A DNA stretch of 64,000 nucleotides, from assembly GCA_045589515.1 (NCBI GenBank), contig JAZNPH010000090.1:5631-69630 (forward strand), given 5' to 3'. The position numbers were made by a program, and so were the translations under genes. Source of the stretch: Eubacteriales bacterium. Lineage in GTDB: Bacteria; Bacillota; Clostridia; Oscillospirales; CAG-382. The notes under the pieces are model-generated. The model was not told the origin of the DNA. It ran no database searches and saw nothing but the letters and a program-made list of their open reading frames with translations. Below, piece by piece: positions 11,008-48,231 of the stretch (positions within the stretch are counted from its first letter, which is position 1; each line of letters starts with the position of its first letter).

Positions 11008-11014
11008 GAAAAGG

Positions 11015-11049: not shown

Positions 11050-11062
11050 GATTATGGGAGAA

Positions 11063-15070: not shown

Positions 15071-15271
15071 AAGAAAATCTCCTTTTTTGCGTTTCTTATT
15101 TATGCTTTTATGATACTCCATTTCCGACAAAAAGTCAACAGAAATCCCAACGGCAAAATGAACTAAAAAACTCTCTCAAATTTGTATAAATGTTTGCATT
15201 GGCTTCATAATTTATTAGTATTTCGTTTGGTATGATATGGTAGACGTTTATCGCAAAGGAGATTGATCAAT

Positions 15272-24064: not shown

Positions 24065-24083
24065 TAACAAACGAGGCGTTTTC

Positions 24084-25133
24084 ATGTCAATCGTAAAAGT
24101 GAAGGCTTCAACGGAATATGAGGTTCTGGTGGAAGAAGGGCTTCTGGATCGCGTGGGGGTTCTTGCAAGAGAACTGCTCCCGGGAAAGACGGCGGCCTTG
24201 ATCACCGAGGAACGAGTGAATGCTCTTTACGGTGACAGAGTGGAAAAGAACCTGAAAGACGCGGGATTCACCGTGTTTCGCTTGGTATTGCCCGAGGGGG
24301 AACAGACCAAGTGTCTTACCCGTTTGGGGGAAGTTTTGGAATTTCTGGCTTCTCGCAAGTTGACCCGTACGGATACGGTGTTTGCTTTGGGCGGCGGTGT
24401 CATGGGAGATCTGGCGGGGTTTGCATCCGCTATCTATCTCCGCGGTATTCGTTACGTGCAGATCCCCACCACTCTGCTGGCGGCGGTGGATTCCTCCGTG
24501 GGAGGAAAGACGGCCATCGACTTAGAGGGCGGGAAGAATCTGGCAGGTGCTTTTCATCAGCCTGCGGCGGTGTATTGCGATCCTTTGGTGTTAAAGACCC
24601 TTTCCCCGGAGGTATTCTCCGACGGGTGCGCCGAGGTGATCAAGTACGCCGTATTGAAGGGCGAGCCCTTGCTTTCCATGCTGAAAAATCCCGAGACTGC
24701 GGATTGGACCGCTATCATCACCCAATGCGTCTCCGTCAAGCGGGACATGGTGGAAGAGGATGAATTCGACACCGGAGTGCGGATGTTCTTGAATTTGGGG
24801 CATACCGTAGGGCACGCCATTGAGAAGCGTTCCTGCTTCGCCCTTTCCCACGGGAAGTGTGTCGCCATGGGGATGGTGATCGCCGCAAGACTTTCGGTCA
24901 AGCTGGGGCTGTGCGGAGAAGATTTGGTGCAGGAGACCGTGAAGCTTTTGAAGACTTACGGGTTGCCCGTGGAATCTCCTTACGAAGGAAACGTACTGCT
25001 TGACACCATGCTTTCCGACAAAAAGCGGGCGGGTGATACCCTGCGGTTGATCTTGCCCAAAGGGATGGGAGATTGCGTTCTCTACCCTGTGGACGTGAAG
25101 GAGCTCCCCGACTTGTTTGCACAAATCATCTGA
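24084..25133 (+). CDS. aroB: 3-dehydroquinate synthase
   Basis: GGGVMGDLAGF, PTTLLAAVDSSVGGKT, LNLGHTVGHAIE. Confidence 0.95.
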   Translation: MSIVKVKASTEYEVLVEEGLLDRVGVLARELLPGKTAALITEERVNALYGDRVEKNLKDAGFTVFRLVLPEGEQTKCLTRLGEVLEFLASRKLTRTDTVFALGGGVMGDLAGFASAIYLRGIRYVQIPTTLLAAVDSSVGGKTAIDLEGGKNLAGAFHQPAAVYCDPLVLKTLSPEVFSDGCAEVIKYAVLKGEPLLSMLKNPETADWTAIITQCVSVKRDMVEEDEFDTGVRMFLNLGHTVGHAIEKRSCFALSHGKCVAMGMVIAARLSVKLGLCGEDLVQETVKLLKTYGLPVESPYEGNVLLDTMLSDKKRAGDTLRLILPKGMGDCVLYPVDVKELPDLFAQII

Positions 25134-25147
25134 ACCGAGTATCAAAC

Positions 25148-26404
25148 ATGAACGTATTACTGACTCCCTCCCATTTAGAGGGAGATTTGAGGGTGATCCC
25201 CTCCAAATCCTACATGCACCGCGCATTGATCTGCGCATCCCTGGCTGACAAACCGACGGTTTTGCATTGCCCCCAGTCCAATCGGGACATTTGGGCTACC
25301 GCCGGTTGTCTTTCTGCTTTGGGGGCGGAGATCCGTGAGGAAAAGGGCGTTTATACCGTGTTTCCCATTGCAAATAAAGAGGGAACGGCTGATCTTTGCT
25401 GTGAAGAAAGCGGCTCTACCCTACGCTTTATGTTGCCCGTCACGGCGGCTTTGGGACGGAAAGCTGTCTTCCACGCCAAGGGAAGGCTGTCGGCAAGACC
25501 CCTTTCCCCGTTGTACGAGGAATTGGTTCGCCACGGTGTGACCCTATCGCCAAACGGAAGCTTTCCCCTATCCATGGAAGGGCAGTTAACGGCGGGAGAC
25601 TTTGTTTTGGACGGCTCCGTCAGCTCCCAGTTTTTCACGGGGCTGCTTTTGGGATTGCCTTTGCTTCCCGAGGAAAGCAGGATCACCGTGTCGGGCAGGC
25701 TGGAGTCTGCGCCTTACGTAGCTTTGACCTGTGCGGTGATGAGGGAATTCGGTGTAGAGCCTGTGGTGACGGAGAGAGAAATGATCGTCCCCCCTGCCCC
25801 CTTCCGTTCCCCCGGCGAGCTTTACGCGGAGGGCGACTGGTCCAACGCCGCCTTTTGGCTGGTGGCAGGCGTTATTGGCGGAAAAATCCGCTTGACGGGC
25901 TTGCAAAAGGATTCCACCCAGGGGGATAAGGCCATCGTCTCCATCCTGCGGGAAATGGGAGGCGACGTCCGGGAAGAGAACGGCAGCCTCCTTGCCCAAA
26001 AGTCTGTACTGCACGGTGTGACCATCGACGCTACGGATATTCCCGATCTGGTGCCCGTTTTGGCTATTGCGGCGGCTTACGCCGAGGGCGAGACGGTGAT
26101 CAAAGGAGCGGCAAGGCTTCGCTTGAAGGAAAGCGACCGCATTGCCAGCGTTTGCGGGATGCTGAAGGCCTTGGGAGTCTCCTGCAAAGAAACGGCAGAG
26201 GGTATGGTCATTCAAGGAGGCGGATTGAAGGGCGGCGTGGTGGATGCTTGTAACGACCACCGCATTGCCATGAGTGCCGCTGTGGCCTCTTTGGTCTGCC
26301 AAGAGCCTGTGACCATTGTGGGCGCACAGGCTGTGGAGAAATCCTACCCCGACTTTTTCCGCCATCTGGAAAGCCTTGGCGGTGTTTATAAGGAACTTAA
26401 CTGA
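25148..26404 (+). CDS. aroA: 3-phosphoshikimate 1-carboxyvinyltransferase (EPSP synthase)
   Basis: PSKSYMHR, ESGSTLRF, SSQF, LRLKESDR, DHRIAM, KSYP. Confidence 0.95.
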   Translation: MNVLLTPSHLEGDLRVIPSKSYMHRALICASLADKPTVLHCPQSNRDIWATAGCLSALGAEIREEKGVYTVFPIANKEGTADLCCEESGSTLRFMLPVTAALGRKAVFHAKGRLSARPLSPLYEELVRHGVTLSPNGSFPLSMEGQLTAGDFVLDGSVSSQFFTGLLLGLPLLPEESRITVSGRLESAPYVALTCAVMREFGVEPVVTEREMIVPPAPFRSPGELYAEGDWSNAAFWLVAGVIGGKIRLTGLQKDSTQGDKAIVSILREMGGDVREENGSLLAQKSVLHGVTIDATDIPDLVPVLAIAAAYAEGETVIKGAARLRLKESDRIASVCGMLKALGVSCKETAEGMVIQGGGLKGGVVDACNDHRIAMSAAVASLVCQEPVTIVGAQAVEKSYPDFFRHLESLGGVYKELN

Positions 26405-26418
26405 GAGAAGGTAGTTTG

Positions 26419-27486
26419 ATGTTTACCTACGGAAATCGCCTGCGGGTGCAGGTATTCGGACAATCCCACTCTGCGGGAATGGGGGTTGTCATAGACGGCT
26501 TCCCCGCCGGCATTGCTGTGAACGCGGAAGGACTTGCCGCTTTTATGGAGCGCCGTGCTCCCGGGCGGAACGCTTTTTCCACCGCGAGAAAAGAACCCGA
26601 CAAAGTGGAGTTTCTTTCCGGCGTTGTGAACGGTATCACCACAGGTGCGCCCATCTCTGCCGTGATCATGAATACGGATACCCGAAGTAAGGATTACGCA
26701 AAGCTTGCGGATATACCCCGTCCCTCCCACGCTGACTTAGCGGCGTATTTCAAATACGGCTCCCATCGGGATCATCGGGGTGGCGGCGAGTTTTCCGGGC
26801 GGTTGACCGCGCCTCTTTGCGTGGCGGGATATCTTTGCATGACCTATTTGGAGACCCTGGGTATTCACATAGGGGCTCATATCGCTTCCGTGGGAGGCGT
26901 ATCGGACGATCAGTTCTCAATAGAGCCTGCCGCAGAGGAATTGCTTGCCCCCGGGAAGAAGGACTTCCCCGTTTTGAACGAAGAAAAAGGCAAGACTATG
27001 CAGGAGGTCATTCTGCAAGCCAAGAGCGAGGCGGATTCCGTGGGCGGCAGTATCGAATGTGCCGTGACGGGGATCCCCGCAGGTACGGGGGGCAGCTCCT
27101 TCGGTGGTATGGAGGGCAGGATCGCCCTGGCTATGTTCGGCATTCCCGCCGTGAAGGGGATCGAGTTCGGCAGCGGTTTTGCGGGCTGTGAAAAGAGAGG
27201 CTCGGAAAACAACGATCCCATCCGCACCGACGGAAACAGGATCTACACCGAGACCAACAACGCAGGCGGACTGATGGGTGGGATCGCCAACGGGATGCCC
27301 GTGGTATTCCGCGTGGGGATCAAGCCTACCCCCTCTATCGGGAAGGAACAGAAGAGCGTTTCCCTTTCCCGTATGGAGAACGCCGATCTGGTGATCGAGG
27401 GACGTCACGATCCCTGTATCGTTCAAAGAGCCGTTCCCGTGGTGGAGGCGGTGGCCGCCTTGGCGGTGGCAGACAGTTTGCTTTGA
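26419..27486 (+). CDS. aroC: Chorismate synthase
   Basis: GQSH, RPSHAD, SGRLTA, IPAVKG, KPTPSI, GRHDPC. Confidence 0.95.
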   Translation: MFTYGNRLRVQVFGQSHSAGMGVVIDGFPAGIAVNAEGLAAFMERRAPGRNAFSTARKEPDKVEFLSGVVNGITTGAPISAVIMNTDTRSKDYAKLADIPRPSHADLAAYFKYGSHRDHRGGGEFSGRLTAPLCVAGYLCMTYLETLGIHIGAHIASVGGVSDDQFSIEPAAEELLAPGKKDFPVLNEEKGKTMQEVILQAKSEADSVGGSIECAVTGIPAGTGGSSFGGMEGRIALAMFGIPAVKGIEFGSGFAGCEKRGSENNDPIRTDGNRIYTETNNAGGLMGGIANGMPVVFRVGIKPTPSIGKEQKSVSLSRMENADLVIEGRHDPCIVQRAVPVVEAVAALAVADSLL

Positions 27487-27504
27487 GTTTTTAGAGGTTA
27501 TATC

Positions 27505-28647
27505 ATGGATATCAAGGATTACAGAGATCAATTGGACGTGCTGGATGCACAGCTTGTGGAGCTGTTCTGCAAGCGTATGGAGATCTGCGGAGACGTGGCC
27601 AGATGGAAGAAGGAAAACGGTAAGCCCATCTTTGACCGCACCCGTGAACGGGACAAGCTGAACACCGTTGGGGAGCTTTCCAAGGAGGAATTTGAGCCCT
27701 ACGTACGGTGTATGTTCCGCTCCTTGTTCGGCTACAGCCGTTCCTACCAGCACAAGCTGTTGGATCCCCCCTCCGCGTTGGCAGAGGAGATCAATCGTGC
27801 ACGGCTGGAGACTCCCGAGCTATTCCCCACGGAGGCTGCCGTGGCTTGTCAGGGGGTAGAGGGTGCTTACTCCTCCTTGGCCTGCGAGAAGCTATTCCGC
27901 GACCCGGAGATCAAGTTCTGTCCCACCTTTGAGGACGTGTTCCAAGCAGTGGACAGCGGAGAGTGCCGCTATGGCATTTTGCCCATCGAAAACAGCACCG
28001 CAGGATCGGTCAAGGCAAATTACGACCTTTTGGTCAAATATCAGTGTAATATCGTCCGCAGTACCCGTTTGCTGGTGAGCCATTGCCTGCTGGCAAAGCC
28101 GGGCGTAAAGCTGCAGGATATCAAAGTCATCTATTCCCACGAGCAGGCCATCGGGCAGTGCTCCAAGTTCCTCTCTTCCCTGTCCGGGGTGGAGGTAAAG
28201 GCCTGCGCCAACACCGCCATGGCTGCACAGATGGTGTCTGCAAGCGAGGATCCCTCCATTGCCGCCATTTCCTCCCGTGCTTGTGCGGAGCTTTACGGGC
28301 TTTCCATTCTAGCGGAAACCATTCAGGATACCGGGGCAAACCGCACACGGTTTATCTGCATTTCCAAAAAGAAGGAGATCTACCCCGGGGCTAATCGTAC
28401 CACACTGATCCTGGTCCTGAAGCACAAGCCCGGCGCTTTGTTCTCCGTTTTGGAACGTTGCAACGAGCTGGGGGTAAATCTGGTGAAGCTGGAAAGCCGA
28501 CCCCTTCCCGAGAGAGATTTTGAGTTTTTGTTCTATCTGGATCTGGACATTCCCGCCGCATCTCCCGCGCTGTACGAGTTGATCGCACTTTTGGAGGCGG
28601 AGACGGAGGAGCTTCGGTATCTGGGCAGTTACCTTGAGGTGGTTTGA
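27505..28647 (+). CDS. pheA: Bifunctional chorismate mutase / prephenate dehydratase
   Basis: N-terminal AroQ-type mutase domain; QGVEGAYS, PIENSTAG, NRTRF; ACT domain with ESRP. Confidence 0.93.
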   Translation: MDIKDYRDQLDVLDAQLVELFCKRMEICGDVARWKKENGKPIFDRTRERDKLNTVGELSKEEFEPYVRCMFRSLFGYSRSYQHKLLDPPSALAEEINRARLETPELFPTEAAVACQGVEGAYSSLACEKLFRDPEIKFCPTFEDVFQAVDSGECRYGILPIENSTAGSVKANYDLLVKYQCNIVRSTRLLVSHCLLAKPGVKLQDIKVIYSHEQAIGQCSKFLSSLSGVEVKACANTAMAAQMVSASEDPSIAAISSRACAELYGLSILAETIQDTGANRTRFICISKKKEIYPGANRTTLILVLKHKPGALFSVLERCNELGVNLVKLESRPLPERDFEFLFYLDLDIPAASPALYELIALLEAETEELRYLGSYLEVV

Positions 28648-29867
28648 TGAAGCCTTTCGGTCTTTTGGGTGAGAAGCTGGGTCACAGCTTTTCTCCCCTG
28701 ATCCATTCCCGCTTTGGGAACTACGAATACCGTTTGTTCCCCACTCCGAAGGAGGAGCTTGGCGCATTTTTAACAAGCGGAAGCTTTGGGAATCTGAACG
28801 TAACCATCCCTTATAAGAAGGCAGTGATCCCCTACTGCAAATCTCTTTCTCCATTGGCGGAGGAAATCGGCAGCGTAAACACCGTCAAGGTGAAGGATGG
28901 GGAGCTTTTCGGCTTCAACACGGATTATTACGGTTTCTGCTATATGCTGGCGGAGGGAAACATTTCCGTCTCGGGCGAGAAATGTGCGGTGATCGGCAAC
29001 GGGGGGGTCGCTCCCACGGTGTGCAAGGCGCTAAAGGATCTTGGCGCACGGGAGATCACGGTGGTGACCAGAGCGCTGAACAACCCCGAGTTTATCGAGA
29101 CCATAGCCGACCACACGGTGGTGGTGAACACCTCTCCCGTTGGGATGTACCCGAACAACGGCCAATCTCCTGTGAACCTGAGACAGTTCAAGGCGTTGAA
29201 GGGTGTGGCGGATCTGATCTACAACCCTTTGAAAACGGCTTTGATGCTCCAAGCAGAGCAATTGGGAGTGCCTTGCGTGGGCGGTTTGCCCATGCTGGTT
29301 GCCCAAGCCAAGCAGGCATCGGAGATCTTCCAAGACGTTAAAATTGACGATGATAAAATTGCTCCTGTTCACAAGGAGATCCATGATCTGTGCGAGACGC
29401 TCTGCCTGATCGGCATGCCGGGGAGCGGAAAGTCCACCTTGGGCAAGCTGCTGGCGGAATCGTTGGGAAAGCAATTTGTGGATACAGACGAATTGATCAT
29501 AGAGATGGCAGGCAAATCCATTCCCGAGATCTTTGCGGAGGATGGCGAAGACGCTTTCCGTGCTTTGGAAACAAGGGCATTGGCGGAAGCTACCGCAAAA
29601 AGCGGCTACGTGGTCGCAACAGGCGGCGGCGTGGTGAAGAGAGCGGAGAACCATCCCCTGCTGAAGCAAAACGGACGGATCATTCTTGTGGAGCGTGGGC
29701 TGGATGAGCTATCCACAGGGGGCAGACCCTTGTCCTCCTCCAGAGAAGCCCTTGAGAAGCTCTACAAGGAGCGCCAGCCGCTTTACGAGGCGTTGGCAGA
29801 TATCGTTGTGCATAACGATAAATCCCCCAAAGAGGGCATTACAGAGCTTCTTGAGAAGCTGTCATAA
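28647..29867 (+). CDS. aroE: Fused shikimate dehydrogenase / shikimate kinase (AroE-AroK)
   Basis: HSFSP, NVTIPYK, NTDYYG, DLIYNP, followed by kinase P-loop GMPGSGKST, FRALE and TGGG. Confidence 0.93.
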   Translation: MKPFGLLGEKLGHSFSPLIHSRFGNYEYRLFPTPKEELGAFLTSGSFGNLNVTIPYKKAVIPYCKSLSPLAEEIGSVNTVKVKDGELFGFNTDYYGFCYMLAEGNISVSGEKCAVIGNGGVAPTVCKALKDLGAREITVVTRALNNPEFIETIADHTVVVNTSPVGMYPNNGQSPVNLRQFKALKGVADLIYNPLKTALMLQAEQLGVPCVGGLPMLVAQAKQASEIFQDVKIDDDKIAPVHKEIHDLCETLCLIGMPGSGKSTLGKLLAESLGKQFVDTDELIIEMAGKSIPEIFAEDGEDAFRALETRALAEATAKSGYVVATGGGVVKRAENHPLLKQNGRIILVERGLDELSTGGRPLSSSREALEKLYKERQPLYEALADIVVHNDKSPKEGITELLEKLS

Positions 29868-37792: not shown

Positions 37793-37821
37793 TTGACAAA
37801 GAATGCTTGCTATGTTAGAAT
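37793..37821 (+). promoter_or_regulatory. Sigma-70 promoter of the murQ - GDPD unit
   Basis: TTGACA-N17-TAGAAT with TG extension. Confidence 0.75.
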
Positions 37822-37863: not shown

Positions 37864-38703
37864 ATGGCTGAATTTCATACGCTGACCACGGAGCAAAAGA
37901 ATGCTTCCTCGTCACAGATCGACAAAATGAGCGCCCTTGAGATCGCAAGGTGCATCAACGAAGAGGATAAGACAGTAGCCTTTGCGGTGGAAAAGTGTCT
38001 GCCGGAGATCGGCGAAGCCATTGACTTGCTGGCAGAGGTTCTGCAGGCCGACGGACGCATCTTCTACTGCGGCGCGGGCACCTCCGGCAGACTGGGAGTG
38101 GTAGATGCCTCCGAGATCCCCCCTACCTACGGGCTGTACGGCAGAGTCATCGGGCTGATGGCGGGGGGCTACAGCGCCATCATCAATCCCGCGGAGGATG
38201 CGGAGGACAGCTTCCACAGCATCGCGGATCTGATGAAGGAGGAATACGGCTACAGTGAGAAGGATATTTTAGTGGCTGTTTCCGCCAGCGGGTCCGCAAA
38301 CTGCGTGAAGGGTGCTTTGGCCTACGCCAAGGAGCTGGGCACCAAGACCATCTGCGTCACCTGCAACAAAAACAGCGATCTGATCCCGCTGTGTGATCTT
38401 GCCATCGCGGCGGAGGTTGGTCCCGAGGTGATCAACGGCTCCACCCGCATGAAGGCGGGCACGGCGCAAAAAATGATCCTGAATATGCTGTCCACCGGCG
38501 CCATGGTGCGGTACGGCAGAGTCCGTGGGAATTACATGGCCTATATGATCCCTTCCAACCGCAAGCTGGTGGCAAGAGCCATCCGCATGATCTGCCAGAA
38601 AACGGGCTGCACTCCCGAAAAGGCAGAGGAAGCCCTGAAGCGGGCGGATAACGTCATTGCAGACGCCATGGACGCCATCGAAGCAGAAAATATATCATTA
38701 TAA
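37864..38703 (+). CDS. murQ: N-acetylmuramic acid 6-phosphate etherase
   Basis: TTEQKN, GAGTSGRLGVVDASEIPPTYG, AED, GPEVINGSTRMKAGTAQKMILNMLST. Confidence 0.92.
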   Translation: MAEFHTLTTEQKNASSSQIDKMSALEIARCINEEDKTVAFAVEKCLPEIGEAIDLLAEVLQADGRIFYCGAGTSGRLGVVDASEIPPTYGLYGRVIGLMAGGYSAIINPAEDAEDSFHSIADLMKEEYGYSEKDILVAVSASGSANCVKGALAYAKELGTKTICVTCNKNSDLIPLCDLAIAAEVGPEVINGSTRMKAGTAQKMILNMLSTGAMVRYGRVRGNYMAYMIPSNRKLVARAIRMICQKTGCTPEKAEEALKRADNVIADAMDAIEAENISL

Positions 38704-38719
38704 TATAGGGGGTACACCG

Positions 38720-41700
38720 ATGAAAATTAAAAGATTCCTTTCCGCGTTACTTACCGCCGTCATGCTTTTTGCCGTAATCGCGGCTACGCCCTTGACAAGC
38801 TCTGCGGCAGGTAACGACGACCTGATCACCATCACCTACACCAATCCCGTTATTACCGCAAACGTAGGCGATACGGTGGATCTTTCCCGCTATGCGGTGG
38901 TTACCGAGGACGGCACGGTCCTCTCTCCCGATGAGATCGATTGGAGACTACGTGACATCGTGCCGGAAACCATCGAGGTGACCGAAAAAGGAGTTCAAAC
39001 CCTTTACGCTTACTACGGAGAAATCCGTCGGGAGATCTATCTGGTCTCAAAGCTTCCGGAAGAGACGGAATACGTGCTGTATGAAAACGATTTCGACTGC
39101 ACGGTGGACGACCTCAGAGAAGAAGGCTGGAAGCTTCTGAACGCAAGCGCCATCAGCATCAGCGACGGCGTTTTCCACATGGGCAACAAGAACGGAGACT
39201 ACTACCGCGCCATTCTGCCCGAGTGGCTGGGGAACTTCGGCGATTACGCCATCTCCATGCAGGCCAGCCAAACGGACGTGCTTAACGGCTCCAGATGGTG
39301 CTCCATCGCCTACCGTATCGAAAACGCCAACAAGAATTATTATCCCTACTACCATATGTGCGTTCGCGCCAACACCACCAGCAGTACGGTGGAGTTCGCA
39401 GAGCGTACCAAGGCCAATGGGTGGAACGTGATCTATAAGACCTCTGCCAACCTGAACATGACGGATGCGGGGTACCACAACATCACGGTCAAAGCCTTTG
39501 AAAACACGGTGCAATACCTGATCGACGGTGAATCCATGCTGTTCGTCAGCGATGCAAAGGCTCATCCCAAGGGATACGTGGGCTTGATCTCCAACTACGG
39601 CTCCATGAACGTGGATTCTATCCGCATCACCGTGCAGGAGGCGGCTCCCGAGCGTCCCAAGGTAGTTCCCAAGCTGCTCAACACTGCGGAAAACCGCGGC
39701 GAGACCAATATCACAAACTACGTTTCCAACCAGGCTTACGTGGGCTTCTCCCGTCTGGAGGAGATCCTGCAAAACGAGGAGCTTCCCGCGGCAGTCTATA
39801 TCGATCTGGACGGCCACTCTCCCACCCAAGGTGATTTTGAGAGAATGCTGACGCTTTGCGCGGAAAAGAACGTGATCCCCCAGTTCAAGCTGACCGCCAA
39901 GGAACAGGTGGATAAGCTCAACGACGCCCTGAAGGCAACCAAGGTGCCCGAGGCTCTGGTGGGCTCCGCAGACGCCGAGGTGGTAAAATACGCCCGCACC
40001 AAGAACAAGGCTGTGATCCGCGGCGCATTGGATCTCACCGAGATCTCCTGGGACGTTCCCACCTCCGATGCCGATATTCACAAATATTACGATATGGCCG
40101 CAGGCGCATACGCACAGGCCATCATCCTCCCCTATCACGCCGCCACCAAGGAAGCGGTTGCCAAGCTTCAGGAATACGAGCTTGCGGTCTGGGCCTTTGG
40201 CGAGAACATCCAATCCGTTACCGAGGGTGCTCATCTGGTGGCATCCGGTGCCAACGCCGTGGTGAGCAACGATTACCAGCTGATCGCTTCCGTTCAGAAG
40301 GAGATCTTCACCGCGGCCGACTCTCTCACCCGCACTCCCGTGTGGACCGCGCACAGAGGCTATTCCACCAAGTACCCCGAAAACTCCATGGCGGCCTGTA
40401 TCGGTGCTTACGAGGTAGGCGCGGATTGCATTGAGATCGACGTACACCTCAGCGCCGACGGCGTGGTGATGGTGATGCACGACGGTTCCATCGACCGTAC
40501 CACCAACGGCACGGGTAATATCGCAAGCATGACCTGCGACCAGCTCAAGCAGTACCGCTTGAAAAACGCCAGCGGCGTTCTCACCCAGGAGGTGATCCCC
40601 ACCTTCGAGGAGATCCTGCAGGAGTTCCAAGGCAAAGACGTGAAGTTCCTCTGCGAGATCAAATCCGGCCAGGCAGGCCTTCCCAAGGCTTGCGTGGATC
40701 TGATCAAGAAGTATGAGATGGAAGACCAGGTGGTGTTCATCAGCTTCTACGCCGATCAGCTTACCGAAGCCAAGAAGCATATGAACATTTCCACCGGCTA
40801 CCTCATCGGCGCCACCGGCTTCTCCGACGGGGCAGACTATGCGGGAACCCTCAACGCTTATTACGAAAAGCAGCTGGACATTCTGAATTACCACGCCACC
40901 ATGGCCATCAACTACGGCAATCTGACGAGCGAGTTCCTGCGGGATGCCAACGACCGCGGTCTCACCCTTTGGACATGGACCTACAACCTGGGCTCTGCCG
41001 CTCAAGTCTGCAAGATGTTCTTGGCAGGTGTGAACGGCATGACCACCGACGATCCCCAATATCTGAAGCACACCGTAAAGACGATTTCCGCTCCTACGGA
41101 ATTGAAGGTGAACGTGGATAAGAAGACCCGCTTTGAGATCAACTCCCTGACCTACGGCGGCAAAGAAAAAGCCGTGACGGAGGATGCAGAGATCATTCTG
41201 CTGGAAAATGACGGCGTGATCCGCGTGGAAACGGACGGCTCCGTTTGGGGCTTGAAGCAAGGGACCGCCTCCTTCATGGTAGCCTACCAAACCAAGCTTC
41301 CCGACGGACAGACCTACACGCTTTACAGCCAGCCTATCGTGGTTGAGGTAGGCACCTTTGAGGGATTAACTCCCACGGAGGCCAGCGGCTTTACGGTAAA
41401 GGACGGGTTGCTCACCCGGGTTGAGTTAGGCTTACGGGTCTCCGATCTGGCCTCCCACTTTGTAGACTTTAAGTACGCGCAGATTTTTGACCAAAACGAA
41501 AGCTTCCTGGCTCCCGACGCGCAGATCTGCACCGGTACGCTGATCTCGCTGTACGGTGAGGTCACCCAAGTGGCAGTATCCGGCGACCTGAACGGCGATG
41601 GCAAGTGCAACGCCGTGGACTACATCCTCATGAAGCGCCATACCGCAGGGAACGAGCTTTCCAAGCTTCAAGCCGCTGCGGCCGATGTCAGCGGAGACGG

Positions 41701-41770
41701 CGAAATCCGTTCCGTGGATTACATCCGTATGAAGCGTTATTTGCTGAAAAAAGCCGACTCCCTGATGTAA
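38720..41770 (+). CDS. Secreted multidomain glycerophosphodiester phosphodiesterase with lectin-like beta-sandwich, degenerate and intact GDPD barrels, Ig-like module, X-module and C-terminal dockerin
   Basis: Signal peptide from MKIKRF; AHRG...PENS...IEIDVH...MHD...EIK catalytic set; dockerin GDLNGDGKCNAVDY...ADVSGDGEIRSVDY. Confidence 0.9.
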   Translation: MKIKRFLSALLTAVMLFAVIAATPLTSSAAGNDDLITITYTNPVITANVGDTVDLSRYAVVTEDGTVLSPDEIDWRLRDIVPETIEVTEKGVQTLYAYYGEIRREIYLVSKLPEETEYVLYENDFDCTVDDLREEGWKLLNASAISISDGVFHMGNKNGDYYRAILPEWLGNFGDYAISMQASQTDVLNGSRWCSIAYRIENANKNYYPYYHMCVRANTTSSTVEFAERTKANGWNVIYKTSANLNMTDAGYHNITVKAFENTVQYLIDGESMLFVSDAKAHPKGYVGLISNYGSMNVDSIRITVQEAAPERPKVVPKLLNTAENRGETNITNYVSNQAYVGFSRLEEILQNEELPAAVYIDLDGHSPTQGDFERMLTLCAEKNVIPQFKLTAKEQVDKLNDALKATKVPEALVGSADAEVVKYARTKNKAVIRGALDLTEISWDVPTSDADIHKYYDMAAGAYAQAIILPYHAATKEAVAKLQEYELAVWAFGENIQSVTEGAHLVASGANAVVSNDYQLIASVQKEIFTAADSLTRTPVWTAHRGYSTKYPENSMAACIGAYEVGADCIEIDVHLSADGVVMVMHDGSIDRTTNGTGNIASMTCDQLKQYRLKNASGVLTQEVIPTFEEILQEFQGKDVKFLCEIKSGQAGLPKACVDLIKKYEMEDQVVFISFYADQLTEAKKHMNISTGYLIGATGFSDGADYAGTLNAYYEKQLDILNYHATMAINYGNLTSEFLRDANDRGLTLWTWTYNLGSAAQVCKMFLAGVNGMTTDDPQYLKHTVKTISAPTELKVNVDKKTRFEINSLTYGGKEKAVTEDAEIILLENDGVIRVETDGSVWGLKQGTASFMVAYQTKLPDGQTYTLYSQPIVVEVGTFEGLTPTEASGFTVKDGLLTRVELGLRVSDLASHFVDFKYAQIFDQNESFLAPDAQICTGTLISLYGEVTQVAVSGDLNGDGKCNAVDYILMKRHTAGNELSKLQAAAADVSGDGEIRSVDYIRMKRYLLKKADSLM

Positions 41771-41780
41771 AATCACTCTC

Positions 41781-41810
41781 AAGAGAGAGCCTGCGGGCTC
41801 TCTCTTTTTT
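41781..41810 (+). terminator. Intrinsic terminator
   Basis: AAGAGAGAGCC-TGCG-GGCTCTCTCTTTTTT. Confidence 0.85.
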
Positions 41811-41862
41811 GACGGTTCATGATAAAATCCGGGCTTCATTTGGACTTTTTGTGAAAAAGCCC

Positions 41863-41891
41863 TTGCATTCCGCCGAAAGGTATTGTATAAT
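41863..41891 (+). promoter_or_regulatory. Sigma-70 promoter of the cohesin/OB-fold gene
   Basis: TTGCAT-N17-TATAAT. Confidence 0.75.
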
Positions 41892-41940
41892 GTAGTCACA
41901 AATCAATGCAAAAAAATAGCAGAAAGGAATCTTTACTTTC

Positions 41941-44496
41941 ATGAAAAGACTTACTTCTCTCATGCTGGCAGTCTTTATGGTAGTTACCATGGTGTCTGCT
42001 TCCCTTCTTACGGTTTCGGCCGCTGAGACCACTTCTGTCTCTCTGTCCGCTCCCGCTGAGGTGGAATTCACCGGGGATGCCGTAGAAGACTCCTTCCAGG
42101 TAGAAGCAAACCTGAATCTTGCCGACGGTCTCACCGCCATTGCAGGTTACGAGGTCAAGCTTACCTGGGATCCCGCTTGTCTCACCCTGTTGGAGACCGT
42201 GTTCTCCGGCGAAGGCATCACTGACCAGAAACCTGGCGAAGGCTCTCTTACTCTGGCAGCGGTCAACGCTACCGACGTGCTTTCCGGCAGACTGTTCTAC
42301 GTTTCCTTCGCGCCCATCGCGGAAGGCAACACCACCGTCTCCGTAGAGGTTCTCAGCATTGCTACCTCCACCGGTCTGATCGATGCAGAGGGCAGCGAGG
42401 TTGCCATCACCGCGGCGAAGCCCGTAGTGATCTACGAGACTCCCGAAGAGATCGTCAACGCAGCTTACGAGCTGGAGAACGGCGAGTATCTCTCCGACGG
42501 CTATAAGTACGCCCTGACCGGTGAGATCATCTCCTTCGAGTCCGTTTACAGCGAGCAGTACAAGAACGTTTCCCCCATCATCGCCGTTGAAGGCGTAGAC
42601 GGCAAGCCCATCCTGTGCTTCCGCATGAAGGGCGAGGGCGCTGACGTGATCAAGATCGGCGACACCATCACCGTTACCGGTAAGATCAAGAATTACAACG
42701 GCAAGATCGAGTTCGATTCCGGCTGTACGCTGGATTCCTACGTTCCCGGTGAGCCCGAGGTCATCATTTACGATACCCCCGAGGCAATCCTGAACGCCGC
42801 TTACCAGCTGGATACCGGCGCTACCCTTTCTGCAGGCCATCTCTACGAGCTGACCGGCGTGATCACCTCTGTCGATACCGAATACAGCGAGCAGTATGGC
42901 AACGTTACCGTTACCATTCAGGTTGGCGATATGGCCGACAAGCCGATGAAGTGCTTCCGCATGAAGGGCGAAGGCGCCGATATCATCAAGGTTGGTGACA
43001 CCATTACCGTTAAGGGTGTGATCAAGAATTACAACGGTACCGTTGAGTTCGACGCAGGTTGTACCTTGGAGGCCTACACGCAGGCTCCCGGCCACAATCA
43101 CAATTACGTTGAAGAGATCACCGTACAGCCCACCCTTTCCACCGAAGGCTCCGCTACCTACACCTGCGAATGCGGCGAATCCTACACCGAGGCTATCCCC
43201 GCTGTAAAGGTTCAGCCCAATGAGCTCGTAGCCCTTCCCGAAGGCGCTCTGGTTCTGGACTATGCAGGCTATAAGCACGATTCCTTCCACTGCATCATCG
43301 CCGGTGACAACCTGACCGTCAACGATCTGACCGCTTTGGGTAACAACGGCGCAGGCAAGGATATGAACTACTTCTACATCATCGTCGTGGATGCAGACGG
43401 CGTGGTGGCAGACTCCTGGTTTGACCTTGGCAGACCCAACGCAGTCAAGAGCGACGTGGTTTGCCCCGCAGGCGGTTACATCATCGGCTTCAACGGCAAC
43501 AAGGAAAACTACGCAGAGCTTGCCAAGATCGAAAAGGGCGCTAAGATCACCCTTTACAACGTAGACGTGGAAGCTCTCCGCGGTGTGGCAGGCAACGTAA
43601 CCGTTGAAAATGCTGGCTTCACCTACAAAAATCCCGCTAAGATCTACGAGACCGCAGAGGATATCATCAACGCGGCTTACGAGCTGGAAAACGGCGAGTA
43701 TCTGTCCGACGGCCATAAGTACACCTTGACCGGCGAGATCCTCTCCGTTGATACTGTCTACAACCCCAACTACAGCAACGTCACCGTTACCATGACCGTC
43801 GAAGGCAAGAACATCCAGTGCTACCGCATGAAGGGTGAGGGCGCCGACGTGATCAAGATCGGCGATACCATCACCGTCACCGGTAAGATCAAGAACTACA
43901 ACGGCACCATCGAGTTTGATACCGGCTGTACGCTGGAATCCTACGTTCCCGGCACCCCCGAGTTCGTGATCTACGAAACTCCCGAAGAGATCCTGCAGGA
44001 GGCATACAAGCTGGCAGACGGTGCGGTTCTTTCCGGCGGCCACAAGTATGAGCTCACCGGCGTGATCCTCTCTATCGATACCGCTTACGACGAAAAGTAC
44101 GGCAATATCTCCGTTACCATTCAGGTTGGCAATATGAGCGAGATGCCCATTCAGTGCTTCCGTTTGGCAGGCGAAGGTGCGGCAGAGCTTCAGGTTGGCG
44201 ATACCATCACCGCTAAGGGCGAGATCAAGAACTACCACGGCAAGATCGAGTTCAACACCTGCGAGCTGCTGAACGTTGTGAAGAAGCCCTCCTTTGCATT
44301 CGGCGACGTGGACGGCAACGGCAAACCCGCTATGGCCGACTACTTCAAGCTGAAGTCCTATCTGTTGGGCAAGAACGATTCCTTTGACGATGGCATGCTG
44401 GAAAGAAGCGACATCGACGGCAACGGAAAGGTCAACAAGCAGGATTACTTCAAGCTGAAATCCTTCCTGCTGGGCAAGTGGGATCCCAACGCATAA
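41941..44496 (+). CDS. Secreted scaffoldin-like protein: cohesin-like domain, four OB-fold-like repeats, Cys/His module plus shared uncharacterised module, C-terminal dockerin
   Basis: Signal peptide; cohesin-like IAGYEVKLTWDPACLTL...GRLFYVSFAP...EG; repeats LTGxI...GDTITVxGxIKNYNGxxEF; dockerin GDVDGNGK...DY / SDIDGNGKVNKQDY. Confidence 0.82.
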   Translation: MKRLTSLMLAVFMVVTMVSASLLTVSAAETTSVSLSAPAEVEFTGDAVEDSFQVEANLNLADGLTAIAGYEVKLTWDPACLTLLETVFSGEGITDQKPGEGSLTLAAVNATDVLSGRLFYVSFAPIAEGNTTVSVEVLSIATSTGLIDAEGSEVAITAAKPVVIYETPEEIVNAAYELENGEYLSDGYKYALTGEIISFESVYSEQYKNVSPIIAVEGVDGKPILCFRMKGEGADVIKIGDTITVTGKIKNYNGKIEFDSGCTLDSYVPGEPEVIIYDTPEAILNAAYQLDTGATLSAGHLYELTGVITSVDTEYSEQYGNVTVTIQVGDMADKPMKCFRMKGEGADIIKVGDTITVKGVIKNYNGTVEFDAGCTLEAYTQAPGHNHNYVEEITVQPTLSTEGSATYTCECGESYTEAIPAVKVQPNELVALPEGALVLDYAGYKHDSFHCIIAGDNLTVNDLTALGNNGAGKDMNYFYIIVVDADGVVADSWFDLGRPNAVKSDVVCPAGGYIIGFNGNKENYAELAKIEKGAKITLYNVDVEALRGVAGNVTVENAGFTYKNPAKIYETAEDIINAAYELENGEYLSDGHKYTLTGEILSVDTVYNPNYSNVTVTMTVEGKNIQCYRMKGEGADVIKIGDTITVTGKIKNYNGTIEFDTGCTLESYVPGTPEFVIYETPEEILQEAYKLADGAVLSGGHKYELTGVILSIDTAYDEKYGNISVTIQVGNMSEMPIQCFRLAGEGAAELQVGDTITAKGEIKNYHGKIEFNTCELLNVVKKPSFAFGDVDGNGKPAMADYFKLKSYLLGKNDSFDDGMLERSDIDGNGKVNKQDYFKLKSFLLGKWDPNA
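42430..44280 (+). repeat. Four ~310-bp coding repeats (start about 42430, 42766, 43642, 43969) arranged A-B-insert-A'-B'
   Basis: Near-identical DNA such as CGCATGAAGGGCGAGGGCGCTGACGTGATCAAGATCGGCGA recurs; repeats 1 and 3 share YELENGEYLSDG, repeats 2 and 4 share GHxYELTGVI...TIQVG. Confidence 0.92.
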
Positions 44497-44586: not shown

Positions 44587-46107
44587 ATGAAAGCAAAAAG
44601 AACCCTTTGTTTCTGTCTGCTGTTCACCTTCGCCCTGCTGATGCTGGCGGGTTGCAACACGCAAGGTGCGGAAAGCTCCGGCGAGCCATCCGCTACCCCC
44701 TCCGCTCCCGAGGTGAGTGACGAGGTTTCGAAGAACGACGACAGATTTGTGGAGACGGATGAATTCCAAGGCAAGACCATCAAGGTGTTCACCGCGGCCT
44801 TCAACGATGCTTACGTCACCGAGATCGGAGACAATTCTCAAAACGAAAACTGTGCAGAAGCGCTTTCCGTGGCCATCAAGGAGCGCACCGAGGCGGTGGA
44901 GGATTCCTACGGCGTCACCATCGAAGAAGAGATCATGATCGATCCCAAGCGTTACGGCGGTACCTTCCTGGCGGCGGTCCGTGAATTCGGATACTCCGGC
45001 ACAGGGGATTACGACATTCTGTATCCCTGTCTTCTGGACGCAGGTACCATGGCGGCGGAAGGGCTGTTGATCGACCTTTCCAACGCTCCCGGTATCCGCA
45101 TCCAAAACTCCTGGTGGGATCAGACCTTTATTTCCGACACCGCCATTGGCAACTGCACCTATTACCTCACCGGCGACATCGGCTTACGTGCCAAGAATGC
45201 CGCAGGCTGTCTGTACTTCAACAAGAAGCTGATGGACGACGCGGGGATGGAATATCCCTACGAATTGGTCCGCAACAAGCAGTGGACCATCGAAAAGATC
45301 CTTGAGCTGATCAAGCAGGCGGATCTCAGCGAGGACTTGGACAAGGACGGCCAGATCACCTACCATGATATGTACGGCTGGGCGGGCCAGAACGGCGATA
45401 TGCAGAAGCTGTTCTACGCCGCAGGGGAACGCATTGCCACGGTTGACGATGCGGGCGTGCCCTATATTTCCATTTACAACGAAAGAAGCGCCAAGGTGAT
45501 AGATTCCATTTTGGATCTTCTGCAGGACAGCGAGGATTACGTTTGCGGCGACGATTACTTCAACGAATCCTCCACTCCCATGACGTTGCTTTTGGATTCC
45601 TTCAAGGCGGATCAATGTCTGTTCTATTCCGGCGGTATGGAGGACGCATTGAAGCTGGGAGATATGCAGAGCGATTTCGGTATCCTGCCCTCTCCCCTGT
45701 TCGATGAGACCCAGGAGCAGTATTACACCCAGGTTGGTGCTTGGTCTGCCAACGCTTACTGCATCCCCTACGGACTGGATGAGGAAAGATCCTACCGTGC
45801 ACAGGTGATTCTGGATGCACTGGGCGCTTACTCCGTGGAATCCGTGGCCACCGCTTATTACGACGTGGTTCTGCAGTATCAGAAGCTCCGTACCGACGAC
45901 GACGTGGAAATGCTGGAGCTGATCTTCGATTGCGCCGGTGCTGATCTCGGTGCGGTTTACCGCGTGGGCGGATTGTCCAACATGCTCACTCAGCTCATCG
46001 CAAAGCCCAAGGGCTCCTTTGCTTCCAGCTACGATGCATTGGAAAGTGCCGCCAAGGCAGAGATGGATGCGTTGATCGAGACCTTCAATCAGAGAGAACA
46101 AGAATAA
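44587..46107 (+). CDS. Extracellular solute-binding lipoprotein (orphan, no permease alongside)
   Basis: Lipobox LAGC; WWDQ, YFNKKL...PYELVRNKQWT, DLDKDG loop, DFGILPSP, as in clostridial family-1-like SBPs. Confidence 0.82.
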   Translation: MKAKRTLCFCLLFTFALLMLAGCNTQGAESSGEPSATPSAPEVSDEVSKNDDRFVETDEFQGKTIKVFTAAFNDAYVTEIGDNSQNENCAEALSVAIKERTEAVEDSYGVTIEEEIMIDPKRYGGTFLAAVREFGYSGTGDYDILYPCLLDAGTMAAEGLLIDLSNAPGIRIQNSWWDQTFISDTAIGNCTYYLTGDIGLRAKNAAGCLYFNKKLMDDAGMEYPYELVRNKQWTIEKILELIKQADLSEDLDKDGQITYHDMYGWAGQNGDMQKLFYAAGERIATVDDAGVPYISIYNERSAKVIDSILDLLQDSEDYVCGDDYFNESSTPMTLLLDSFKADQCLFYSGGMEDALKLGDMQSDFGILPSPLFDETQEQYYTQVGAWSANAYCIPYGLDEERSYRAQVILDALGAYSVESVATAYYDVVLQYQKLRTDDDVEMLELIFDCAGADLGAVYRVGGLSNMLTQLIAKPKGSFASSYDALESAAKAEMDALIETFNQREQE

Positions 46108-46149: not shown

Positions 46150-46237
46150 GAACGCTTAAACCTTTTTCTTTTCTTGCAAAGAAAAAGATTTAAGCATTCA
46201 AAATGAAAAACGCATTGCCGAAAACGATCGTTTTCGG
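46150..46237 (+). repeat. Dispersed two-hairpin element, copy D
   Basis: GCTTAAACCTTTTTCTTT-loop-AAAGAAAAAGATTTAAGC, A-rich linker ending CATTG, CCGAAAAC-GATC-GTTTTCGG. Confidence 0.7.
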
Positions 46238-46311: not shown

Positions 46312-48231
46312 ATGACGGAGCAGATCTGGAAGATCGACGGGGAACGTTTGGTTTGGGAGATCAAAAAAGGGCAGGTACATACCGACGACATTGAAATGAG
46401 CGGCTTTTACGCCGACGAGATCATTTCCTACGGGGTGAAGGAGGACGGCAGTCTTCATTTGGAGCAGAGCTTTTACTTCCCCACCCTGCGTACCATTCCC
46501 AACCACACCCACGCCACCTATCATTTTGACGTGGCAAGGGAACAGACCCCCTGTCTTTTGAAGGACGGCGCTCCCGTGAAGGAATTCCCCATTCAGGCGG
46601 AGCTGGACGGCACCCTTTGCATCACCTGCGATACCGACGAAGGCGTTCTGGTGGTGCGCCGTTTTTACCCTGCCCAAAACGCACTTTGCTGTGTGGAGCA
46701 GGTCTCCTTGATCGCCATGGAGGACGGGGAGTTTACCCTTTCCCTGCCCGCTACCCATCTACACGAGCACGGGAGAGGTACCAAGGGCGTTTACCTTGCG
46801 GAGATCCGCCACGACGCTCCGGAGGTGATCAAGCTTGCCTCGGGGGACATGTTGACCTATTACGTTTACTACTCCGCACGGATCGCCAATCAGCCCCGCC
46901 CCGAGGTAGACGGCGGGCAAGAGCTTTTGGCACGTCTTGTGCGTGTGGAGGAGCTTTGCGGCACCATGGTTCTCCGCACCGCAAACCCCGTGTTGGACGG
47001 TATGTTCCGTTTTTCCAAGCTCCGTGCAGGGGAAAGCATTTTCGAGACCCTCACCGGGAAGTATCACAGCCCCGGGGGACGCTCCTACTATGCCGCCACC
47101 TGGTGCAACGACCAAGCGGAATACGCAGGCCCTCATTTCGCCATGACAGGGGACAAGGCTGCCATGGAGGCTTCCCTGAACGCTTACCGCTCCTACACGG
47201 CTTTTATGTCCGACAGCTTCCACAAGCTTCCCTGCTCCATCATTGCGGAGGGGCTTGACATCTGGGAGGGTGCGGGTGACAGAGGCGACGCGGCCATGTA
47301 TCTTTACGGTGCTTCCCTGTTCTGCCTTTACACGGGAGACAAGACCATCGCCAAGGAGCTTTACCCTGCCATCAAGTGGTGCGCGGAGTACTGCCGCCGT
47401 CAGACCCTGCCGGAGGGTGTGATCCGCTCCGATTCCGACGAATTGGAGGGCCGTTTCCCCACGGACAGGAAGGCCAATCTTTCCACCTCCTGCTTATGCT
47501 ATGGCGGGTTGGTATTTGCTTCCAAGCTGGCAGAGTCCTTGGGAGATACGGACACGGCAGAGGATTACAAAAAGAGGGCCGCCGCGTTGGCGGAGGCCAT
47601 TGACAGCTATTTCGGTGCGGTGCTTCACGGGTTTGAGACCTACCGCTACTCCAAGGGGTACGACACCTTGCGGGCGTGGATCTGCCTGCCCTTGTGCATG
47701 GAGATGGGAAAACGGAAGGAGGGCACTTTGGATGCCATGCTTTCCTCCTATCTGTGGACGGAGGAAGGGATGCTCACTTGCGAAATCTCCGACGAGAACC
47801 GTTCCAGCACCATTTGGGATCGTTCCACGTTGTACGGCATGAAGGCGGCCTTCCTTGCCGGTGCGGGGGATCGGATCATGGCGCCCTTTTTGGGGTACTG
47901 CCGCAAGCGGTTGTTGTGCGACCGTGTTCCCTACGCGGTGGAGGCGTATCCGGAGGGCGGGAAGCGCCATCTTTCCGGGGAGAGTGCGTTGTTTGCCCGG
48001 GTGGTCACGGAGGGGCTTTTCGGTATTCGGCCGGAGGGGCTTACGGCCTTCTCCTTTGTGCCTGTCTACTTTGAGGAGCTGGGTGAGATCAGCCTGGAGA
48101 AGCTCCCCATCTGCGGCGGGTGCTACGGCATTCGCGTAGGCAGGGACGGCTGGGTGGTCTCCGACGGCGGCAAAGAGGTTGCCCGCGGGGAGACGGACGG
48201 CAAGAGAGTGGAGATACGCAAAGGGGCTTAA
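46312..48231 (+). CDS. Six-hairpin glycosidase-like protein, cytoplasmic
   Basis: HSPGGRSYYAATWCNDQAEY, GDRGDAAM, SDSDELEGRFP, WDRSTLY, PYAVEAYPEG motifs; no signal peptide. Confidence 0.75.
   Translation: MTEQIWKIDGERLVWEIKKGQVHTDDIEMSGFYADEIISYGVKEDGSLHLEQSFYFPTLRTIPNHTHATYHFDVAREQTPCLLKDGAPVKEFPIQAELDGTLCITCDTDEGVLVVRRFYPAQNALCCVEQVSLIAMEDGEFTLSLPATHLHEHGRGTKGVYLAEIRHDAPEVIKLASGDMLTYYVYYSARIANQPRPEVDGGQELLARLVRVEELCGTMVLRTANPVLDGMFRFSKLRAGESIFETLTGKYHSPGGRSYYAATWCNDQAEYAGPHFAMTGDKAAMEASLNAYRSYTAFMSDSFHKLPCSIIAEGLDIWEGAGDRGDAAMYLYGASLFCLYTGDKTIAKELYPAIKWCAEYCRRQTLPEGVIRSDSDELEGRFPTDRKANLSTSCLCYGGLVFASKLAESLGDTDTAEDYKKRAAALAEAIDSYFGAVLHGFETYRYSKGYDTLRAWICLPLCMEMGKRKEGTLDAMLSSYLWTEEGMLTCEISDENRSSTIWDRSTLYGMKAAFLAGAGDRIMAPFLGYCRKRLLCDRVPYAVEAYPEGGKRHLSGESALFARVVTEGLFGIRPEGLTAFSFVPVYFEELGEISLEKLPICGGCYGIRVGRDGWVVSDGGKEVARGETDGKRVEIRKGA

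Follow-up and report, generated by a model that had tools for sequence, protein, structure and literature searches.

A probable non-catalytic cohesin-dockerin adaptor with four OB-fold repeats at a conserved phosphodiesterase locus of an uncultured gut bacterium

Cohesin-dockerin machines are understood almost wholly as devices that degrade plant fibre (and starch). What, then, is the role of a secreted protein that combines one cohesin, one dockerin and four OB folds, and whose gene follows that of a dockerin-bearing glycerophosphodiesterase (GDPD)? The gene, here called the adaptor gene, lies within 64,000 nucleotides of contig JAZNPH010000090.1 (positions 5,631 to 69,630 of the forward strand; assembly GCA_045589515.1); this whole stretch is the window that we analysed, and its host is an uncultured animal-gut Oscillospiraceae/Eubacteriales bacterium. 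An earlier note, made from the sequence alone, had read the product as a signal peptide, a cohesin, two OB folds, a Cys/His unit with an unknown module, two further OB folds and a dockerin, and this order was borne out in the 851-aa open reading frame (ORF; Table 1). The note had also claimed that there is no catalytic domain. No catalytic family was detected in the adaptor by Pfam or NCBIfam; the claim holds to that extent, but the central module belongs to no known family and could harbour an activity. Reading the translation by eye, we saw no lipobox Cys in the signal peptide. On balance, we favour the view that the protein acts as a monovalent adaptor scaffoldin, secreted and without catalytic function, in a non-cellulolytic cohesin-dockerin system, with a proposed polymer-targeting role for its OB repeats.

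We looked at the N-terminal module in sequence and in predicted structure. Pfam returned no cohesin match for the adaptor ORF at an expectation value (E) of 1 or below, nor was the module listed in a genome-wide Pfam search. Despite this silence of the Pfam hidden Markov model, homology to cohesins was reached by phmmer: an exhaustive search with residues 29-164 against 1.84 billion representatives gave 25 matches at E<=1e-3, including multi-cohesin scaffoldins at E 2e-10 to 8e-4. Nineteen of the 25 were scanned with Pfam together (the query, its relatives P0010, P0012, P0030 and P0059 and the 108-aa fragment P0127 were omitted; P0010, P0012 and P0030 were scanned in a separate run and P0059 stayed outside the Pfam scans). 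PF00963 Cohesin was found in nine of these 19, in up to nine copies each, and one of the proteins with a Pfam-called cohesin, P0136, aligned over the entire adaptor module. Three others were small proteins composed of the module and a dockerin (P0121, P0131 and P0138), three combined the module with discoidin domains and a dockerin (P0050, P0122 and P0123), and in the remaining four (P0124, P0129, P0133 and P0139) Pfam found nothing relevant. In a search of the PDB by sequence, the only match, to AhpD (E 0.36), was judged to be due to chance.

The AlphaFold2 model of the module, built from a 17-row alignment, had a predicted local distance difference test (pLDDT) score of 94.2 and a predicted template modelling (TM) score of 0.86. 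It agrees with the cohesin fold, a flattened beta-sandwich (jelly-roll) of about nine strands and ~135-150 aa, and can be superposed on solved cohesins. Foldseek gave 139 matches in the PDB at E<=1e-3, the best being 2jh2_A (E 6e-9, TM-scores of 0.78/0.80). The top ranks were taken by Clostridium perfringens cohesins (2jh2, 2vo8 and 2w1n, TM ~0.8), followed, among others, by CaCohA2 and the ScaC cohesin of Ruminococcus flavefaciens (5lxv). Taken together, the model and the remote sequence matches uphold the cohesin assignment of the earlier note and indicate that the module is a true cohesin from a lineage invisible to Pfam. As standard domain models miss this lineage, systems of this kind are under-counted. 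Searching the genome with a family profile of the module brought up no further copy, and the other cohesins of this genome, on contig C45, were unmatched at E<=10. A single-sequence query (E<=1e-3) detected the module in 9 of 60 further genomes from the genus and in none of 103 genomes from 14 other genera of the family.

At the other end of the protein, residues 788-844 matched Dockerin_1 (PF00404; E 1.3e-7, 32.1 bits against a cut-off of 22.9) over profile positions 2-57 of 57, and two segments of ~22 residues, each an EF-hand-like calcium loop of the form D-x-D/N-x-D/N-G...D followed by a helix, are both visible, as in type I dockerins. The source genome (2.4 Mb, about 98% complete) holds 26 dockerin matches, which we sorted into three sequence classes by inspecting one alignment. 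The common class includes the GDPD protein and the 1353-aa dockerin protein of the window. A rare class, with the helix motif DYFKLKS, comprises only the adaptor and a 727-aa protein on contig C25. The third class (8 copies) is found at the C-termini of giant proteins on contigs C3, C8, C36, C43, C49 and C89, whose frames run to 2546, 4497 and more than 5000 aa and are packed with 38-aa Cys/His units. The helices MADYFKLKSY and KQDYFKLKSF, which the earlier note had set apart from those of the other two dockerins in the window, are present and fall into another class in the alignment. The three membrane proteins of contig C45, with one or two Pfam cohesins each (five in all) and a C-terminal transmembrane anchor, are likely cell-surface anchors of the system. 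Among relatives, the dockerins of six GDPD enzymes share 55% identity and those of seven adaptors 48%, against 32% between the two groups, figures that define classes of sequence, not of specificity. One adaptor dockerin resembles the common class; it comes from a genome without the GDPD neighbour. Complex prediction for the cohesin with the dockerin of its GDPD neighbour gave a score of 0.02 against a mark of 0.32, the partner's own fold being uncertain in that prediction, and it weighs neither for nor against the pairing.

The adaptor gene occupies a fixed place in related genomes. In seven contexts the order is a glycosyltransferase (GT2) gene on the opposite strand, a MurQ-like SIS gene, the GDPD-dockerin gene, the adaptor gene with its variable middle part, the gene of a 506-aa lipoprotein and a six-hairpin glycoside hydrolase (GH)-like gene. 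The GDPD-dockerin gene is directly upstream of the adaptor gene in six of seven related genomes, and likewise at two of the OB-repeat loci described below, L042 and L048; in the seventh genome the lipoprotein gene is downstream and no GDPD match was found within the 16.5 kb available. No nuclease gene was seen within the conserved locus. What changes is the stretch between cohesin and dockerin. In the source genome it reads OB, OB, Cys/His unit and central module, OB, OB. Elsewhere it is OB, discoidin, central module, OB; or OB, discoidin, OB, OB, discoidin, OB, OB; or OB, OB, discoidin, Cys/His unit and central module, OB, OB, discoidin; or three central modules with no OB repeat (discoidin domains were assigned by Pfam). 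Two species have minimal adaptors of 229 and 245 aa made of cohesin and dockerin only, meaning that the OB, discoidin and central modules are variable inserts. At the loci L042/L127 and L048/L131, whole OB-OB-discoidin blocks are near-exactly duplicated inside orthologous adaptor genes and the dockerin type differs between orthologues, which points to fast shuffling of modules in this gene. From these gene comparisons the invariant unit appears to be a cohesin-dockerin adaptor like ScaC, with the OB repeats as accessory inserts. The earlier note had proposed a ScaC-like adaptor; the core at a fixed locus, the GDPD-dockerin neighbour and the two dockerin sequence classes speak for this, and the partner of the cohesin is still predicted from the genes.

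We then considered the repeats themselves. The Pfam tRNA_anti-codon OB family (PF01336) matched the adaptor in four stretches (E 2.9e-14, 53.2 bits against a cut-off of 27). The four repeats are pairwise 54-75% identical in protein, and their alignment confirmed that two Cys are kept in every copy, as the earlier note had said. At the DNA level the copies are 64-79% identical, which marks the duplications as old. In a FastTree tree of 56 repeats from 12 hand-picked proteins (midpoint-rooted, with no printed support values), A and A' fell beside the first and third repeats of the closest orthologue, and B beside the second and fourth, a grouping that supports an A-B tandem unit; in the same tree the adaptor repeats nest among those of lipoproteins encoded in the SNase operons of the genus. 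A model of residues 274-566 (pLDDT 94.0) showed repeat B as an N-terminal helix and an OB barrel, in agreement with the closed five-stranded beta-barrel of this fold, and Foldseek placed the OB model with the anticodon-binding domains of LysRS and with TiaS, POT1 and RPA32, at weak E values from 1.6e-3 and with probability 1.0 in most rows. A repeat profile run against PDB sequences found no close solved relative, only Stn1 at E 0.67. An NCBIfam match to ExeM_NucH (E 3.8e-4) was far below the cut-off and limited to 28 residues of the beta4-beta5 hairpin. Pfam, the predicted structure and Foldseek thus agree with the OB-fold claim of the earlier note, and the repeats are, on this evidence, true OB folds of the nucleic-acid-binding superfamily. 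Over 273 unique repeats, N48 (97%), R67 (96%), Y91 (93%), N90 (90%) and Y46 (84%) are conserved; from the DSSP string of the 274-566 model, these positions would lie on loops and strands that usually form the ligand face of an OB fold.

Where else the repeat is found bears on what it may bind. It is shared by more than 1107 proteins. Among 120 listed homologues, 96 have a lipobox (by our own regular expression), nine a dockerin and seven the cohesin module; they contain 2-10 repeats, with one protein having none, and the partner domains in relatives are F5/8 type C, X25, CBM20 and LTD. The related records come from uncultured Oscillospiraceae, Eubacteriales, Faecousia and Scatosoma metagenome-assembled genomes, from ruminant and other animal guts. 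In species genomes, 308 stretches encode a relative of the repeat, and 73 loci were retained. An SNase homologue was present in the available flank of 46 of the 73, in 43 cases along with a binding-protein homologue; the proportion was 36 of 47 when at least 5 kb of upstream sequence was available and 10 of 26 when there was less. All but one of the 46 SNase genes (45/46) lie upstream in the same orientation, and the gap has a median of 24 nt. A fusion of the repeat with a dockerin was seen at only four of the 73 loci (L042, L048, L065 and L072), and the combination of repeat, dockerin and cohesin module at only two (L042 and L048).

The source genome has its own example, a paralogous lipoprotein with six repeats that are 55-67% identical to OB repeat A of the adaptor. 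Its operon (L040, Table 1) is a candidate locus for the scavenging of extracellular nucleic acid, conserved in many gut Clostridia, to judge from its genes. The SNase lipoprotein encoded there matched PF00565 (E 2e-9) and gave weak OB matches in its C-terminal half (E 0.0018). A 403-aa lipoprotein encoded after the OB lipoprotein was considered as an RNase, which was unsupported, since Pfam returned Big_2 only and the PDB weak Ig-like matches. The SNase-adjacent home of the repeat favours the binding of a polyanion.

The central module and the Cys/His unit complete the insert. The central module is confidently folded in the 274-566 model; it has no Pfam family (LTD was matched weakly in 4 of 23 members, best E 0.015), nothing below E 0.28 among PDB sequences and no usable match in the Atlas. 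Of 26 genomes sampled from the family, 16 have it, in some cases as tandem copies, and it mostly keeps company with discoidin domains and dockerins; elsewhere in the source genome there are copies in the NAGPA protein of the window and in a 397-aa membrane protein. A widespread, bead-like repeat, the 38-aa Cys/His unit occurs across the order and in up to 22 stretches in one giant surface protein of the source genome, and was modelled as three short strands (pLDDT 62-85). The adaptor copy lacks one Cys that is seen in other copies when the alignment is read directly.

How might such a protein work? As we see it, the rare-class C-terminal dockerin would plug the adaptor into one of the membrane-anchored cohesin proteins of the genome, and the N-terminal cohesin would capture a dockerin-bearing enzyme, the prime candidate being the upstream GDPD with its common-class dockerin. 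The OB repeats, together with the central module, would be the counterpart of a carbohydrate-binding module, keeping the complex on its polymer substrate. This substrate would most likely be a phosphodiester-linked polyanion, either extracellular nucleic acid or a teichoic-acid-like polymer, because the repeat is otherwise dedicated to lipoproteins encoded beside surface SNase nucleases. A polyanion-binding role, which the earlier note had also proposed, is favoured by the fold class, the SNase neighbourhood, the conserved polar and aromatic positions, the partners that share a phosphodiester theme (SNase, GDPD and NAGPA) and by precedents. Deletion of a region with two putative OB folds nearly abolished the activity of the ExeM nuclease (PMC6085458); wall teichoic acid is broken down by GlpQ, itself a GDPD enzyme (PMC7086022); and mycoplasma operons (MAG_5040) join an SNase to a sugar-like ABC importer (PMC3585158). 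We hold the binding of a polyanion by the repeats to be a genuine possibility, though not one to be relied on. Unlikely as a whole is the still wider idea of a cellulosome principle redirected in this genus to phosphodiester-linked polyanions, in which a membrane-anchored assembly would hold a teichoicase-like GDPD enzyme through the adaptor, whose OB repeats would act as the binding module for teichoic acid or extracellular nucleic acid.

Several points weigh against this picture, the first being charge. The four OB repeats of the adaptor are acidic (isoelectric points, pI, of 4.3-4.6, net charge -8 to -10), as are the six of the paralogous lipoprotein (pI 4.1-4.7; over all the repeats, the net charge of each lies between -5 and -11), which does not suit a simple electrostatic capture of polyanions. 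Other secreted proteins checked are likewise acidic (pI 4.1-4.9), the median for ORFs of more than 400 aa being 5.55. The conserved polar residues could be structural instead, for instance as part of a salt bridge or a Cys pair. The precomputed Pfam domains of the 120 listed homologues include no nuclease family, and in relatives the repeat also stands next to starch-binding X25/CBM20 or discoidin domains, which would be in keeping with a generic spacer. At the conserved locus the repeats are dispensable, two orthologues having none and one having three central modules in their place. On the side of the cohesin, it could prefer the dockerin class of the adaptor itself, which is present in only two proteins of the genome. 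Finally, a strong terminator-like hairpin and a separate promoter-like site between the GDPD and adaptor genes make their co-transcription uncertain.

Acidity makes a purely mechanical role the liveliest rival. The protein would keep its part as an adaptor scaffoldin, and the repeats could be an inert rigid spacer or stalk that sets reach and spacing, any recognition of substrate being left to the central module or to the discoidin domains of relatives. The range of copy number across the family, from 0 to 10, the two orthologous minimal adaptors without repeats, the coupling to unrelated binding domains (F5/8 type C, X25, CBM20 and LTD) and the Pro/Glu-rich linkers that were seen by direct reading to connect the repeats would all fit a stalk. 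However, conservation over the 273 repeats reaches 90-97% at several positions, polar or aromatic, for which a place in the core is not required, the main home of the family is directly downstream of SNase genes (the 36 of 47 loci with enough flank), and the fold class is the nucleic-acid-binding type of OB. We consider the spacer somewhat unlikely, and retain the OB repeats as a proposed targeting module.

A second alternative concerns the partner of the cohesin, which may bind its own rare dockerin class; adaptor molecules would in that case join one another in chains or dimers, or the 727-aa protein of contig C25 would be recruited in place of the GDPD. As this dockerin class occurs in just two proteins of the genome and the cohesin module is unique in it, a private pair is conceivable, and the terminator-like hairpin that parts the two genes agrees with it. 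Against it, the GDPD-dockerin gene order is kept in six of seven related genomes, the adaptor dockerin changes type among relatives while the cohesin and the GDPD neighbour persist, and known adaptors with one cohesin and one dockerin use two specificities (PMC5429695). Self-pairing is improbable in our estimation, and the GDPD remains the preferred partner. The least probable reading is that the adaptor is mainly a protein for capturing extracellular DNA or RNA, or a matrix protein, with cohesin and dockerin as mere tethers, parallel to the OB lipoproteins of SNase/ABC operons: the nesting of its repeats among those of these lipoproteins, the SNase association of the repeat family and the scavenging operons of mycoplasmas (PMC3585158) suggest it, but a dockerin suffices as a tether, nothing at the locus is better conserved than the cohesin, which is kept in orthologues without OB repeats, and the conserved locus lacks a nuclease.

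Concerning expression, the terminator-like hairpin and its U-run directly follow the GDPD stop codon, and the promoter-like site ahead of the adaptor ORF was read directly, the consensus scan having missed it because its -35 hexamer matches only 3/6 positions. In public runs the stretch is found mostly in DNA contigs from animal gut or faeces, with pieces 95-99% identical in two runs from two studies. One run declared as a metatranscriptome (X19) gave only contigs 90-95% alike over 42344-44331, indicating neither transcription of the adaptor nor operon structure. Contig joints seen in public runs lay between repeat copies and had short sides, and were read as repeat artefacts or other strains.

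The features of the window, with those elsewhere in the genome, are collected in Table 1. The TTG given as the start of the GDPD gene (38657) lies inside the MurQ-like gene, which ends with a stop at 38703; on direct reading, translation probably begins at the ATG at 38720, after which a signal-peptide-like stretch follows. The synteny of the MurQ-like and six-hairpin GH-like genes hints that the locus handles material derived from cell envelopes. As a lead only, the 506-aa lipoprotein is possibly a divergent ABC solute-binding protein; in the Atlas clusters nearest to it SBP_bac_1/8 is found in only 10-14% of members. A 780-aa antisense ORF (41896..44238) was taken for a shadow frame of the adaptor gene, and so was, because it has no family match, the equally long ORF 10985-15166 (+) opposite the NAGPA gene. 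The window also holds an aromatic amino-acid cluster at 23228-29867 (+), with genes for 5-enolpyruvylshikimate-3-phosphate (EPSP) synthase, chorismate synthase, chorismate mutase/prephenate dehydratase and a shikimate dehydrogenase-kinase fusion.

Table 1. Modules of the adaptor, neighbouring genes and signals in the window, and related loci on other contigs of the source genome.
Feature	Position	Strand	Remarks
Adaptor ORF	41941..44496	+	851 aa
Sec-type signal peptide, aa 1-28	41941..42024	+	Translation read directly: basic N-end (K/R), hydrophobic core, VSA-AE
Divergent cohesin, aa 29-160	42025..42420	+	
OB repeat A, aa 161-268	42421..42744	+	Pfam PF01336, repeat alignment, type A clade in repeat tree
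OB repeat B, aa 269-385	42745..43095	+	
Cys/His beta-ribbon mini-unit (38 aa) and linker, aa 386-427	43096..43221	+	Degenerate: His and CxC only
Uncharacterised central module, aa 428-566, ~135 aa	43222..43638	+	
OB repeat A', aa 567-668	43639..43944	+	Best Pfam OB stretch aa 595-658; 75% identical to repeat A
OB repeat B', aa 669-782, most divergent copy	43945..44286	+	54-59% identical to the other three
Type I dockerin (two Ca-loop/helix segments) and stop codon	44287..44496	+	Pfam PF00404
Secreted GDPD glycerophosphodiesterase with dockerin	38657..41770	+	Pfam GDPD E 7.9e-37, Dockerin_1 E 2.9e-13
Terminator-like hairpin and U-run between GDPD and adaptor genes	41775..41816	+	RNA fold -21.9 kcal/mol, z -3.96
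Promoter-like TTGCAT-17 nt-TATAAT before adaptor ORF	41863..41891	+	Read directly
Promoter-like site before MurQ-like gene	37793-37821		Consensus match only
MurQ-like SIS protein	37864-38703	+	Weak family matches, syntenic in relatives
506-aa lipoprotein, downstream	44587..46107	+	Syntenic in all 7 related loci extending that far; no Pfam match
Terminator-like site after lipoprotein gene	46218-46237		Consensus match only
Six-hairpin glycosidase-like protein	46312-48231	+	Weak family matches, syntenic in relatives
Secreted dockerin protein, 1353 aa	29959-34020	-	Several Cys/His units; no other recognisable family
NAGPA phosphodiester glycosidase, membrane-anchored, 1355 aa	11063-15130	-	Two F5/8 type C domains, Cys/His unit, central module
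Three cohesin membrane proteins	contig C45, 4745-5941 and 34433-37616	+ and -	One or two Pfam cohesins each, C-terminal transmembrane anchor
SNase operon L040	contig C47, 21565-30583		Two ABC permeases, solute-binding lipoprotein, SNase lipoprotein, six-repeat OB lipoprotein, Big_2 lipoprotein

The genus thus appears to have a conserved locus for a cohesin-dockerin adaptor whose partner would be a phosphodiesterase and whose inserts are OB folds, discoidin domains and a module without a family. Should the OB repeats bind phosphodiester polymers, they would be a new class of scaffoldin-borne module for substrate targeting, and the logic of scaffoldins and carbohydrate-binding modules would extend to a new class of substrate. 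The locus would then offer a handle on the scavenging of teichoic acid or extracellular nucleic acid by uncultured gut Oscillospiraceae, and would encode a surface machine that harvests phosphate or glycerol-phosphate from the envelopes of other bacteria or from extracellular DNA. A full-text search of the literature collection used found no account of OB folds on a scaffoldin, nor did the titles and abstract openings of the Oscillospiraceae cohesin/dockerin papers listed give an account of such an adaptor; a preprint on giant genes (10.1101/2023.11.21.568195) has no bearing on it.

In function and architecture the closest known protein is ScaC, and in predicted structure the cohesin is nearest to the non-cellulosomal cohesins of C. 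perfringens. ScaC of R. flavefaciens is an adaptor with one cohesin and one dockerin; its cohesin takes some dockerin groups, and the dockerin that it carries belongs to another group and docks onto other scaffoldins (PMC5429695). The present adaptor is alike in having one cohesin and one dockerin and no catalytic family, with two dockerin classes at its locus, and the minimal orthologues of 229-245 aa are of similar size. It is unlike ScaC in that four OB folds and an unknown module stand between cohesin and dockerin, and in that the neighbouring dockerin enzyme is a GDPD phosphodiesterase and not a hemicellulase, the system being non-cellulolytic; the identity between cohesins is 15-22% in structural alignments, and the present partners are predicted ones. 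The C. perfringens cohesins (GH33 NanJ, 2vo8; GH84C, 2jh2/2w1n/2o4e) sit in large catalytic enzymes and have as partners dockerin-like modules from other enzymes or from toxins, whereas the present carrier is non-catalytic and bears a dockerin.

With YhcR of Bacillus subtilis and ExeM/NucH of Shewanella the adaptor shares the OB class PF01336. Those proteins have a nuclease domain (SNase, EEP or similar) in the polypeptide; the adaptor has no nuclease domain by Pfam or NCBIfam and is therefore not of this kind, its repeats are acidic, and its link to nucleases goes through the gene neighbourhood of its paralogues, not through fusion. The OB lipoproteins of the SNase/sugar-type ABC importer operons of gut Clostridia have the repeat unit in common with it, that of the source genome at the 55-67% identity to OB-A given above. 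The adaptor differs by a Sec signal without a lipobox, by the lack of SNase and ABC neighbours, the upstream gene being that of the GDPD-dockerin protein, and by a gained cohesin and dockerin; it is thus not an SNase-operon lipoprotein. Altogether, three things are new with respect to these systems: a scaffoldin that carries OB folds and an unknown module, a conserved partner that is a phosphodiesterase, and a lineage of cohesins that Pfam does not see.

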